DNA of 64,000 nucleotides from an uncultured delta proteobacterium. Its GTDB lineage: Bacteria; Desulfobacterota; BSN033; UBA1163. This document shows positions 6,989 through 12,884 of the stretch, piece after piece (within the stretch, counting starts at the first letter, position 1; each line of letters opens with the position of its first letter). The stretch is from the NCBI GenBank assembly GCA_963708295.1, contig CAVPSJ010000016.1, forward strand, positions 1-64,000. Reading direction: 5' to 3'. The position numbers and the translations under genes were made by a program. Under the pieces are notes generated by a model, which saw only the letters and a program-made list of their open reading frames with translations, was not told where the DNA came from and did no database searches.

Positions 6989-7360
6989 TCCCTCTCTCTT
7001 CCTTTGCCATTCACTTAACTCCGAATCACTCCTCCTTACGCCGTATTTTCTCTCTGTCCCTACCCGACACCCAACTTATAATTTTATGGACGTCCCCCTC
7101 TCATTCCCGTCCCCCTCTCATTCCACAAAGCCACCTGCGGGATCGTAGTTTTTAAGGGTACCACGATGAGGGTCCTTAATAAGCAGGATCATAGAATTGG
7201 ATCTGTCTCAGGATGAGAAAAAAGGCCTGGATCAAAGTGCCAGAGCACTGGAAACAAAAGTCCATCTGGTCGAAAATTTGTAAACGAGGACCGATAGATT
7301 TCTTCAATTTGCCGTAGATATTGTAGTTTCAATGGTGAATCGCTTGTATGGGGTCGTCTA

Positions 7361-7756
7361 TCATTCGAAGGGCTTGACAACATTCACACGATGAGCCACG
7401 GCGTTGCTCCGTTCTATCTTTTCGTCTCGAAGATATTCAACATAACACTGCAAAACAGATGGACCATAACGAGCGACAAGCGGTACGTCGAAGTACGCAA
7501 ACGATCCATATTCTACGTCCTTTACGTCAACGCAGTACGGCCCATCCCCATACCAATAGAAACAAGCTCTGCGAATCTCAGGATGACCGTCTGCTTCGAA
7601 ATTGACACGGATCCAGAATTGCGAATTCGTCAGGATTCTTGCGGGGTCGCGGATCTCCATGTCCAATAGTCTAAGTTCTCCCTTCTTTAGCGTACAAGAA
7701 GAACTCGCCAACAAAATAGCGACACTCATTAGAATAGGCGCGAGAATCCTCTTCAT
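7361..7756 (-). CDS. Hypothetical lipoprotein
   Basis: GGAGG upstream; hydrophobic leader ending LASSSC. Confidence 0.65.
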   Translation of the reverse strand: MKRILAPILMSVAILLASSSCTLKKGELRLLDMEIRDPARILTNSQFWIRVNFEADGHPEIRRACFYWYGDGPYCVDVKDVEYGSFAYFDVPLVARYGPSVLQCYVEYLRDEKIERSNAVAHRVNVVKPFE

Positions 7757-8074
7757 CTCCCCACCTCCTATCAGACCGGATTGCCTTTGACTTTAGCGAA
7801 ATTCTCCGGCGGAGTCAACAGGAATTTGAACAGATGTTTTGAGGACATACTCTTCAAAAAACAGAAGACGGAGGGACATGTTTGAAGACAACACTTTTCC
7901 CCCTATCCTCCATCGGCGTGCGAATAACTTGCTAAAAATGAGATCTTATATTGCATGGAGATGCTTCCTTAGGTCTATTATACTGACCATTTATAATCGA
8001 GGATTTCCATCTGAAACATTCCACGGATAAGATCTATGCGGGTCTGAAGACTTCAGGAAATATTCTTCGGAAAC

Positions 8075-8107
8075 AAAGAAGGCAGGGCCATTTCTGAACC
8101 TGCCTTT
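8075..8107 (-). terminator. Rho-independent terminator downstream of the MerB-like gene
   Basis: AAGGCAGG...CCTGCCTT stem followed on the minus strand by CTTTGTTT. Confidence 0.55.
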
Positions 8108-8212
8108 GTAAAGAGGATGAAAAGGATGAGATATTAATAGGATAATAAGAAATGGAGTCAGTGTCTATTGGACTTTGGTCTTATATAGAAAACGTAGTTG
8201 AAAATTAACACT

Positions 8213-8982
8213 TTATTCTCTCTTCCTTCCAGGTTCTGGCTTAAATCCAAAAATTGCGCTTTGGATGATTTTCGTCCCTTCAACCATCTGCTTTGCTGTA
8301 AGGTATGCACCCCGCATCCTGTGCACCTTCCTCCGGTACTCTTTCGCGTGTTCTTCTGACCAGAAGAATAGACTCTCGTTTCAAAACGCATTGATAATGC
8401 TCTCATCTTCGAGCTTGAAGAGATTGACATCCGGCACAAAGACAATTGGCTTGCAGCCTTCCTCTCTCACGGTATAGTTCAGATCGCTGTCAATCTCAAT
8501 TTCCATCGGTCGGGAGCAGTGGGCACATTGCGTGTTGACGATAACCGACAAGGTTTCCTGCCTTAATTGCCCTTGCACGAAGGGCGCCGCAAACGCGTCG
8601 GCCGCTCAGGCTGCATATAACTGCTCACCCGTGCTAAATGTCAGGTGATGCGGGGTTTTATCAACCGTCACAGGATATGCCCAAAGACCTCTCCTTTCTT
8701 ATTTCTGAACAGGAAGGTCATACGCTTTTCTAAATCATCCAGAATCACTTTCACCCGGCTGATGGATAGCTTTAGACTGTTAGCAACGAATTCCGGCGAT
8801 AACGGTTTCCCGGCGTATGGGAGTTCTCTAACCACGAAATGATGCACTAAGCCATGTTCCTTAGAAGTGAAACTGTTCTCGGCTTCAAATTTCTTTTTCG
8901 CCTTGGAAATCTGTTTTTCCCATAAAAACGGCGGGACCTTAAATATGTACCGCCACAACCCAAGCATGAGTTTATCTTTCAT
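8213..8982 (-). CDS. MerB-like organometallic lyase with two predicted selenocysteines (UGA 8608-8606 and 8383-8381); one probable sequencing frameshift near 8685
   Basis: After +1 repair it reads WAYPVTVDKTPHHLTFSTGEQLYAA-U-AADAF...CAHC...IINAF-U-NESLFFWSEEHA to TAA at 8213. Both UGAs align with the MerB catalytic Cys motifs (LYAWCALD, SFCCHVHFF), and hairpins follow both. Confidence 0.8.
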
Positions 8983-9140
8983 TGAATGTTCCCCTTATAT
9001 CGACCGATCCTAGCGGCAATTCCTGCTCCAAAATCCCTTTTATACAATATCCTCTTAATCGTATTATCAATCGAACTCTTTATTTTCTTAGCCTAGAAAT
9101 ATCTAATCTCATTTTTCAAATCGGTGCCTCTGTACTCTTC

Positions 9141-9578
9141 CTATGGCTTAGGGAGCAGTCTAAGCTTTGATTGAGGCAGATCGATCCGCCGCGCCTTTTC
9201 TTTTCCGGAAATCATGATTGCTGCTGATACGTCGAAACAATCGTTCTCACCAACCCTAATGCGAATAACCCCATTGAGCTTGTTGATATCTGTTAGCATG
9301 GATGCACCGTGACCGGCCGAAGCATGAAATTCTTCAACCGCTGAAATTGCCCTTCCGATTTCGATATTCCAATCATCCGGAATCATCGTAATCGCTTCGA
9401 TGTGCCCGCAAGCAACAATAATTTGAACTTGCTCTATTCGCTCGCCATCTTTCTTGGACAAATCAATATTCGAGAAATGAAGCCGGTAGACGCCTTGAGA
9501 ATCAGCAGCGTGAGTCGTCGCACTCAGGAGGATAACGGCTAGCATCATCACCATAATTTTAGTATTCATAATTCTCAT
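9141..9578 (-). CDS. Secreted hypothetical protein, cassette-like
   Basis: Signal peptide ending THA-A; GTTAAGT (GTTRRRY) 5 nt before the ATG. Confidence 0.7.
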   Translation of the reverse strand: MRIMNTKIMVMMLAVILLSATTHAADSQGVYRLHFSNIDLSKKDGERIEQVQIIVACGHIEAITMIPDDWNIEIGRAISAVEEFHASAGHGASMLTDINKLNGVIRIRVGENDCFDVSAAIMISGKEKARRIDLPQSKLRLLPKP

Positions 9579-9744
9579 TTCACACTTAACAACCTGTTGA
9601 AAAGGCCCTTTCGACGAGTGAGAGCGACGTCTAAGGGGAAACTTTGACCCCTCCCATGCATGAGATTATGGATTCTGGCGCATACTATGGAGTCACTTTT
9701 TTCTTCATCTCGCCCAGGAAATCTGCTTGAGGACTTTTTTACTG

Positions 9745-9805
9745 CCGCAAGGTCAAGCTCGGCGGCGGCGCGTCAAGGCCATCCGTTGGAAAGTGTGGTT
9801 ATCCG
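9745..9805 (-). other. Degenerate attC-like site overlapping the 3' end of the HIT gene
   Basis: GGATAACCACACTTTCCAACGGATGGCC-TTGAC-GCGCCGCCGCCGAGCTTGACCTTG has an attC-like layout, but the terminal GTT is mutated. Confidence 0.4.
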
Positions 9806-10358
9806 CTATCCAGATTTTGTTGAAGATTTTCCTGAGTCTTTGAGCGTTTCTTGTCACCTTAATTTTTGTAGCCTTCCTAATTTTATTCCTAAGTTCTTTA
9901 CTCTTAGTTCCTGTAGTTGAATTGAGAAAATCAACAAAAAGACTAGCTGCAATTTCTTTCCTGCCTAAAAAAAACATGCCGTTTCCATCCTCTGTTGGTT
10001 TATTGACCATTTTGACAGGTTCCCCTAGTCTTTTCGGGATAAGATGGAAATGCAAATGTTTTGACCCTTTTCCAATATTCAGAGAAACAACCAAAATCTT
10101 TTGGATGCTAGAATCAGCTTTCCTAATAGACATACAAGCTTTCTTTAGAAGAACACCGAATTCTTCCATTGCTCTATAGGACAAACGATTGTCAGTTAGG
10201 CCATAAACATGGCGTTTGAATACAAGCATACAATGAAAATCAGATTGTGGCTCTCTATTTAGCATGAAAAGCCAATCTTTTGGTTTTCTTGAAACCACCT
10301 GATAACTATCAGGGAACTCTTCTTTGCAAAAAGTACAATTACTTTTCTTCTTTGTCAT
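9753..10358 (-). CDS. HIT-family nucleotide hydrolase, AT-rich, cassette-like
   Basis: N-terminal CTFC and histidine triad HLHFHLIP. Confidence 0.8.
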   Translation of the reverse strand: MTKKKSNCTFCKEEFPDSYQVVSRKPKDWLFMLNREPQSDFHCMLVFKRHVYGLTDNRLSYRAMEEFGVLLKKACMSIRKADSSIQKILVVSLNIGKGSKHLHFHLIPKRLGEPVKMVNKPTEDGNGMFFLGRKEIAASLFVDFLNSTTGTKSKELRNKIRKATKIKVTRNAQRLRKIFNKIWIADNHTFQRMALTRRRRA

Positions 10359-10382
10359 TTTTCTTGAAGTTAATGCTGCGGC

Positions 10383-10547
10383 TCACCGGGAGCCGGATTT
10401 ATCAACCATTCGGACTTTTAACAAGGAATCAGCTTCGGCGAGAACCTCGTCAAGCTCATACCCCTTGCCTGCCTCGATCTCTTTCTCGCCGCAGGCTTGG
10501 AGGCTCAAAATCTCTTGTTCATAGTGAAAATACTTGTACACTCTCAT
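10383..10547 (-). pseudogene. 54-aa remnant resembling the C-terminus of a Phd/YefM-type antitoxin
   Basis: MRVYKYFHYEQEILSLQACGEKEIEAGKGYELDEVLAEADSLL; no DNA-binding N-terminus and no adjacent toxin. Confidence 0.45.
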
Positions 10548-12589: not shown

Positions 12590-12884
12590 TCAAATTACGT
12601 AGAAAATTGGTTTCTTAAATCCCTCCCCACCTTCCTTTACGAAGGGGGGGAGTATCCCCTCTCGGGGGACTGTGTCGCAATGGAGCTTCTGAGGAGAGAG
12701 GCGGTGGGAAAAGAGGTCGTAACCTTAATCTAAGCCAAAACCTTGAAATTTTTATTTCTTGAAGGTGGCAACTCAATGTGGTGGAAACCAGAGGGCTAAA
12801 TGTGGGGCGTAGAACGTCGGGTTTTAGCATATATTGGGGTTTTCTCAACTAAACGAAAGAATTGGAATAAGTATAAAATTTTAC

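Follow-up and report, generated by a model that had tools for sequence, protein, structure and literature searches.

The closest described relatives of the gene reported here are the canonical lyase MerB (EC 4.99.1.2; structures 3F0P and 1S6L), with its catalytic set Cys96/Asp99/Cys159, and SaoL, a MerB-like selenoprotein whose single selenocysteine (Sec), part of a Cys-Sec (CU) dipeptide, stands where MerB has Cys159, which keeps a Cys in place of Cys96, and whose gene lies inside the nine-gene sao cassette with an ABC transporter (Haft & Gwadz, 10.1101/2022.07.06.499078). SaoL is the sole MerB-like entry in two reviews (PMC9312934; PMC13188914); the latter, from 2026, gives SaoL one Sec and describes most of 119 selenoprotein families or subfamilies as having a single Sec. 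Prokaryotic selenoproteins with several Sec residues form a small minority. Here we describe a MerB-like gene with in-frame UGA codons at both metal-ligand positions, found on the minus strand (8982-8213) of a 64,000-nucleotide (nt) stretch of an uncultured delta proteobacterium of the Desulfobacterota (assembly GCA_963708295.1, contig CAVPSJ010000016.1, positions 1 to 64,000), hereafter the window, to which all plain coordinates refer. Full-text literature searches, which did not cover supplements, returned no publication describing Sec at the two ligand positions of a MerB relative, and a two-Sec MerB-like family, both ligands being Sec and each UGA having its own selenocysteine insertion sequence (SECIS), appears to be unpublished.

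The gene was scattered over the standard listing of open reading frames (ORFs) of the window as separate ORFs of 104, 65 and 37 amino acids (aa). The first of these, in frame A (8668-8982, minus strand), began with an ATG at 8982-8980 and encoded an N-terminal winged-helix-like domain of 104 aa that ended in GEVFGHIL at a TGA (8670-8668); its product aligned with residues 1-99 of intact homologues, and the last five residues, FGHIL, were out of frame, lying past a frameshift. The MerB catalytic core followed in the -1 frame as an open stretch of 161 codons (8213-8698, minus strand) that ended at a TAA (8215-8213) and contained exactly two in-frame TGAs, one at 8608-8606 in the context LYAA-U-AAD and one at 8383-8381 in the context INAF-U-NESLFFW, where U marks the putative Sec. 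A TAA at 8701-8699 in the -1 frame confines the shift to 8698-8671. With one codon restored, the joined frames gave a protein of 99 + 1 + 156 = 256 aa, and frames and stops were found where a first-pass annotation, made from the letters of the window, had placed them when it proposed that three fragments form one protein of about 256 aa with two in-frame UGAs. The C-terminal piece was 77% identical to that of an intact homologue (L044), which stood in for the window copy in several of the comparisons below.

Read through both UGAs, the C-terminal piece (8216-8698) scored 55.2 bits on the Pfam MerB model PF03243, above the cut-off of 27. It scored below the NCBIfam cut-offs for MerB (40.7 vs 200 for NF033555 and 38.4 vs 193 for NF009710) and for SaoL (32.3 vs 140 for NF040728), as did full-length L044 (50.8 and 62 bits on the MerB models, 50.3 on SaoL). 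The family, although widespread, is uncatalogued. A sequence search of the PDB with the window piece alone returned no MerB match, and a profile was needed to reach the solved structures. This profile, A2, was made from 37 homologues and the two window pieces and replaced an earlier one, A1, that had Trp at the Sec columns and was misaligned by one residue at site 1. A2 matched solved MerB (1s6l, 3f0p and others) with an E value of 9.6e-8 and MerB2 with 4.4e-8. In its alignment, with MerB chain numbering counted from the printed alignment, Sec column 1 corresponded to Cys96, the conserved Asp to Asp99, a conserved Cys to Cys117 and Sec column 2 to Cys159. The first UGA (8606-8608) therefore occupied the Cys96 position, with the Asp99-equivalent Asp at +3 (8599-8597), and the second (8381-8383) the Cys159 position, as had been predicted from the letters alone. 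The canonical Cys96/Asp99/Cys159 set was thus present only in its Asp, both Cys columns being UGA and presumably Sec. An AlphaFold2 model of L044, the intact homologue and not the broken window copy, had a mean local confidence (pLDDT) of 90.8 and a predicted template modelling score (pTM) of 0.87. The top 11 PDB matches of this model were all MerB or MerB2 (E values of 2e-12 to 2e-8), with target-normalised template modelling scores of 0.75-0.82 to the crystal structures.

We evaluated the conservation of the two UGAs in 401 sampled genomes from the phylum, with a homologue threshold of E <= 1e-10, and in a collection holding one genome per species. A homologue was found in 26 of the 401 genomes, the source genome included, and all 26 near-full-length places carried at least two TGAs; a partial place (L042) was degenerate and did not enter the further counts. 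Of 419 stretches that fitted the family patterns in the one-genome-per-species collection, 381 were confirmed. The 106 loci examined, comprising the 26 from the phylum sample and the best 80 of the 381, represented 92 distinct coding sequences. Every one of the 106 had TGA at both columns and Asp at +3 after the first, and protein conservation was strong downstream of each UGA. The best 80 loci were all in metagenome-assembled genomes (MAGs), mostly of Syntrophales, Smithellaceae, Desulfomonilaceae and Desulfobacterales, with a few labelled Nitrospirota, Abyssobacteria or Omnitrophota. Overall, MAGs of Syntrophales, Desulfobacterales and Desulfomonilaceae, and some of Nitrospirota, recovered from soils, wetlands and sediments, commonly carried the family.

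Public annotation treats these codons quite differently, which raises the alternative that the TGAs are ordinary stops, nonsense mutations or Trp codons and that no selenoprotein exists. Gene callers returned either fragments of 125, 65 and 41 aa, named "hypothetical protein" and once "YceD", or full-length proteins with Trp at both columns. Among the 150 best cluster representatives, 102 stopped at profile positions 123-125, just before Sec column 1 (a hand count), and 34 of the 42 best public protein matches (P0001-P0036) were "full-length" calls with Trp at both columns. These Trp calls probably arose from translation of TGA by a Mycoplasma-type table, apparently on short metagenome contigs, a systematic mistranslation that hides the family. 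Standard annotation had been expected to split or miss the gene, and the public calls bear this out, either fragmenting the family or writing Trp at its Sec columns. Against stops or Trp codons stand the 106 of 106 loci with TGA at both columns and strong conservation after each. Seven homologues, moreover, had a third TGA exactly where homology ends (...FGW-TGA), and because it ends the gene where homology stops, TGA must also serve as a stop in these organisms.

The more distant relatives bore on the same alternative, since Cys occurred at either column. Nine clusters had Cys at site 1 (P0028, P0038, P0040, P0139, P0143, P0144, P0148, P0150 and P0155), and two distant relatives (P0137 and P0140) had Ser at site 1 and Cys at site 2, the Cys/UGA alternation that, together with conservation past the UGAs, had been suggested as a check. 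The nine proteins with Cys at site 1 end just before site 2, presumably at a UGA there. Some relatives fit less well and count against a simple two-Sec picture: P0031 had Gly and Leu at the two columns, and a divergent group (P0141, P0142, P0149, P0152, P0179, P0196 and P0204) had other residues, in some cases (P0141, P0142, P0149, P0179 and P0204) Glu or Gly with a shifted Cys. It is possible that relatives with other residues at these columns are non-catalytic or differently wired offshoots. With Cys/Sec, Ser/Cys and still other combinations among the more distant relatives, we rejected the description of an obligate two-Sec family.

Each UGA was followed, inside the coding sequence, by a SECIS-like hairpin at the position and spacing given in the first-pass annotation. 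Hairpin 1 (8569-8585, minus strand; GCCCTT-CGTGC-AAGGGC, stem 8585-8580 paired with 8574-8569) begins 20 nt after the first UGA, and its loop, CGUGC (8579-8575), lies 27-31 nt past the U of that codon. Hairpin 2 (8351-8368, minus strand; TTCTTCT-GGTC-AGAAGAA, stem 8368-8362 paired with 8357-8351) begins 12 nt after the second UGA, with its loop, GGUC (8361-8358), at positions 23-26 from the U. We take this GGUC-type apical loop about 20 nt past the UGA to resemble that of the Escherichia coli fdhF SECIS. Both window hairpins were identical to the family consensus.

Support for the hairpins came from comparison across the family and not from folding of the single sequence. Synonymous codon entropy was 1-2 bits at nearly all other invariant residues and about 0 at the hairpin stems. 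After site 1 the codons of P-F-V-Q-G were CCC (frequency 0.99), TTC (1.00), GTG (1.00), CAA (0.84) and GGG (1.00), and after site 2 those of F-F-(W)-S-E-E were TTC (1.00), TTC (1.00), TCA (0.77), GAA (1.00) and GAA (0.91); these near-frozen codons form the two stems. Such freezing of synonymous sites again argues against ordinary stops or Trp codons. At site 2 the pair closing the loop couples an amino-acid change (Trp TGG or Arg CGG) to a silent change in Ser (TCA or TCG): among the 92 coding sequences the codon pairs were TGG+TCA in 71, CGG+TCG in 18, TGG+TCG in 3 and CGG+TCA in none. A count by base pair gave UA in 71, CG in 17 and UG in 3 for the closing pair, with no others. Site 1 had a pair (24-40) that was GC in 71, UA in 5 and other in 6 sequences, and another (28-36) that was UA in 67 and UG in 15. 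Paired cells made up 94.3% of 574 at site 1 (32-60% with the partner slid) and 97.9% of 910 at site 2 (42-62% with the partner slid), and the two-sided cell count was reached by 0 of 500 shuffles at either site. Several results weigh against the hairpins as SECIS elements. Single-sequence folding was no better than that of shuffles (z 0.87 for hairpin 1 and 0.14 for hairpin 2), an Rfam search of 8100-9100 gave no relevant match, shuffled alignments equalled the number of pairs with a change on both sides in 494 of 500 cases for site 2 and in 236 of 500 for site 1, and only one pair per hairpin showed a clear two-sided change. Support for the hairpins is therefore mainly conservation and not broad covariation: the synonymous sites are frozen, and a single pair shows clean compensation.

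The genome encodes complete machinery for Sec insertion, the last of the observations that speak against the TGAs being stops or Trp codons. The first-pass annotation had named selA, selB, selC and selD as genes to look for, and all were there: selA (532 bits), selB (353 bits, above cut-off), the tRNA-Sec gene selC adjoining selA on contig 14, and two selD genes with one in-frame TGA each (L010 and L011; G000:C17:66608-67531 and G000:C4:371872-372792), so that both selenophosphate synthetases are probably selenoproteins themselves. We therefore regard it as extremely unlikely that the two TGAs are anything other than recoded codons, and we hold with high confidence that the family consists of two-Sec MerB-like genes. 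Sec is the residue predicted from the sequence at both UGAs.

A second MerB-like gene, intact, was present in the same genome (L013, 1360-2187 of the minus strand; G000:C4:637022-637729). It scored 65 bits on PF03243, and the two columns that are TGA in the window family were in-frame TGAs here as well (WYGQ-U-GLE and GLA-U-SRMNLF). It differed in having Glu for Asp at +3, a longer C-terminal tail and only 24% identity to the window family over 115 aa. The clade to which it belongs was found in 46 of the 401 phylum-sample genomes, where every full-length match contained at least two in-frame stops, nearly all of them TGA.

The window family shares with SaoL (NF040728) the PF03243 fold, a predicted Sec at the Cys159 position, the retained Asp, occurrence in anaerobes, truncation at UGA in databases and a location outside the mer resistance operon. 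SaoL differs in its CU dipeptide and its Cys at the Cys96 position, whereas here both ligands would be Sec, Phe or Tyr precedes the second, and the motifs are AA-U-A.D and [FY]-U with no Cys before either UGA. Window family proteins reached only 32-50 bits on NF040728 (cut-off 140), and the nine-gene sao neighbourhood was seen neither at the window nor among the recurrent neighbours of homologues within 3.5 kb. With canonical MerB the family has in common the two-domain fold, the three active-site positions and a Cys at the Cys117 position; canonical MerB differs by an identity of only about 20%, by the 38-62 bits that the family scores against cut-offs of 193-200 and by having Cys where the family has Sec. 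It also differs in context, as merA, merR and merT were absent beside the window gene. No mer genes were found within about 3.5 kb of it, and no MerA above cut-off was found in the genome (the best match to a MerA model was 323 bits vs a cut-off of 454), in agreement with the earlier remark that merA, merR and other mer genes were missing nearby.

As assembled, the window copy does not encode an intact member of this family. Relative to 6 of 6 aligned homologues it lacked the first base of the codon preceding a conserved TGG, the coding strand reading GTC-TTT-GGG where homologues read GTC-GTT-TGG or similar, which places a one-base deletion at 8685-8686 (minus strand). The first-pass annotation had located the missing base in a T-run near 8685; the one-base shift does lie there, but the base need not belong to the T-run. 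All 106 homologous loci crossed this junction in one frame. With the base missing, translation from the ATG would end at 104 aa, before the catalytic core, and this copy as assembled is very probably non-functional.

Whether the deletion exists in cells or only in the assembly was judged from read-derived contigs and related sequences. No sequencing run contained half of the sequence words of the stretch, and no RNA run was listed as containing it. All 5 contigs of run X2 that cover the site (70.7 of 70.7 depth) carried an additional base behind 8685 or 8686, which reads G or T on the coding strand; because their sequence differs from the window elsewhere, these contigs come from relatives. 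In run X3, a 151-nt contig (record 18) matched 8680-8830 with 0 differences and 0 gaps and so carried the deletion. The alternative is an assembly or consensus error, with cells holding an intact gene that makes a full-length two-Sec MerB-like protein. Such an error would fit the intact state of the remainder of the gene, in which no nearly invariant residue is missing and neither hairpin departs from the family consensus, and also the apparently long-read origin of a genome assembled in 20 large contigs. No contig other than this one has the exact 104-aa product on record; the other 14 listed members of its 90% identity cluster (47 members, 40 read) were all intact 125-aa fragments. The X3 contig, the sole read-derived support for a real deletion, had a depth of 2.4, carried the deletion site 6 nt from its end and may share a sample with the assembly. 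There was, besides, a second single-base frameshift in the assembly, in a conserved flavoprotein gene (G000:C20:69245-70604), which may signal assembly indels. All of these points weigh against a real deletion. In its favour, the X3 contig matches the deletion state exactly, the missing base is outside any long homopolymer, and the large conserved genes inspected (selA, selB, the EF-Tu pair, IF2 and others) were unbroken.

The interrupted flavoprotein gene on contig 20 encodes a pyridine-nucleotide disulfide oxidoreductase (plus strand) and is split over two frames by an apparent single-base indel around 69735, outside any homopolymer. Either this gene is another pseudogene, or the split reflects indel errors in the assembly.

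On balance, we consider it fairly probable that the deletion is real in the DNA and present in cells, and give an assembly error with an intact cellular gene a distinctly less than even chance. As the rest of the gene shows no decay, a recently inactivated pseudogene is the most likely state of this copy, and the combined reading, a two-Sec MerB-like gene of which this copy was recently inactivated, is one that we marginally favour. The frameshift had previously been treated as a mere base to be restored. That treatment is not supported: by the refuting condition set in the first-pass annotation, reads that confirm the frameshift, the copy looks like a true pseudogene, although the exact 151-nt X3 contig that shares the deletion is thin evidence. 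Since it appears to be broken, this copy tells little that the family does not.

The sequence at the break also allows for a gene working as two polypeptides, in which the 104-aa domain would stop at the TGA (8670-8668) and translation would re-initiate at a GTG (8669-8671, minus strand) in the downstream frame, giving a core that begins ...TVDK. The overlap of stop and potential start (GTGA) is present in the sequence, and the break coincides with the point where, in the model, the N-terminal helical domain gives way to the first strand of the core (E99-102). Such a core would be without the conserved W-A-Y-P strand, however, none of the 106 homologous loci is split there, and the GTG encodes the conserved Val of YPVTV in all homologues, making the overlap most simply a coincidence. 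We consider two functional polypeptides highly unlikely and retain the recently inactivated gene as the preferred reading. Programmed -1 frameshifting and transcriptional slippage are unlikely and were set aside: an X XXY YYZ heptamer and a long A/T run are both absent from 8698-8671, and a shift is needed in no homologue.

The genes around the window copy were those for a 145-aa hypothetical protein, a HIT-family protein, ligA, a small lipoprotein-like ORF and an aspartyl protease. With the window gene as query, no MerB-like gene was found in 14 same-genus or 24 same-family genomes. DNA matching 7000-10400 was missing in five same-genus genomes, where the flanks lay at unlinked places, and G+C was 0.40-0.47 in this region vs 0.49-0.53. 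Because the region is absent from five same-genus genomes and lower in G+C, the gene sits in a variable stretch, and 7000-10400 looks like accessory, possibly transferred DNA. Repeats of about 40-70 nt occurred at 8071-8109 and 12590-12663 and recurred at many places in same-genus genomes with 80-96% identity; the one at 8071-8109, just downstream of the gene, has an inverted repeat and resembles a dispersed element of the repetitive extragenic palindromic (REP) type. A scan for promoters and terminators gave nothing usable.

Among the 106 homologous loci, a MarR-type regulator was directly upstream on the same strand in 33, and a MerR-family regulator, also on the same strand, was upstream in 19 and downstream in 3 (22 in total); L037:4-504 and L043:2971-3981 (both plus strand) are examples of these recurrent regulator neighbours. 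Neither type of regulator was present in the window. The upstream regulators suggest inducible expression in the family. A thioesterase recurred within 3.5 kb in 11 loci, and no recurrent transporter cluster was seen within that distance, in a survey that did not use hidden Markov models of the sao genes.

The first-pass annotation had also pointed to hgcAB as genes to look for, and the genome did contain hgcA-hgcB (L128:1012-2520, minus strand; G000:C4, about 16.0-17.5 kb). The encoded HgcA carries the cap-helix motif NVWCASGK as well as a Cys-Sec (CU) dipeptide in its N-terminal part, with hgcB in frame after a TGA stop; both features have been described for most HgcA (Haft & Gwadz, bioRxiv 10.1101/2022.07.06.499078). 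When matches were counted as hgcA up to E 1e-45, a limit chosen by eye from a bimodal list, the gene was present in 15 of 26 genomes with the window family vs 107 of 375 without it (Fisher p 0.003, for genomes that are related and not independent). This co-occurrence, the family being about twice as frequent in hgcA-positive genomes, is only a hint.

A working member of the family might act as follows. Each UGA would be recoded by its own hairpin, which lies within the coding sequence and would be recognised by SelB carrying Sec-tRNA(Sec); the genome encodes this machinery. By analogy with MerB, the intact enzyme would then clamp its organometal substrate, most plausibly an organomercurial, with its two selenolates, and the Asp would protonate the leaving carbon; both chemistry and substrate are extrapolated from MerB. 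We propose tentatively, and at rather low probability, that the two-Sec clade and its sister clade form a mer-operon-independent organometal lyase of anaerobes, with methylmercury, or another compound that has a metal-carbon bond, being cleaved between the two selenolates. The first-pass annotation had suggested a different organometal(loid), or methylmercury demethylation in an anaerobe, as a possibility. A selenium metal-binding pair would bind mercury far more tightly than MerB does, raising questions of turnover, product hand-off and the true substrate. On the practical side, current annotation fragments these genes or puts Trp at their Sec positions. If the proposal is true, the family, enriched in hgcA genomes and often under a MarR- or MerR-type regulator, would be a candidate for the as yet unassigned demethylating activity in mercury-methylating bacteria of sediments and wetlands, and if it acts on methylmercury it would bear on net methylmercury levels in anoxic environments.

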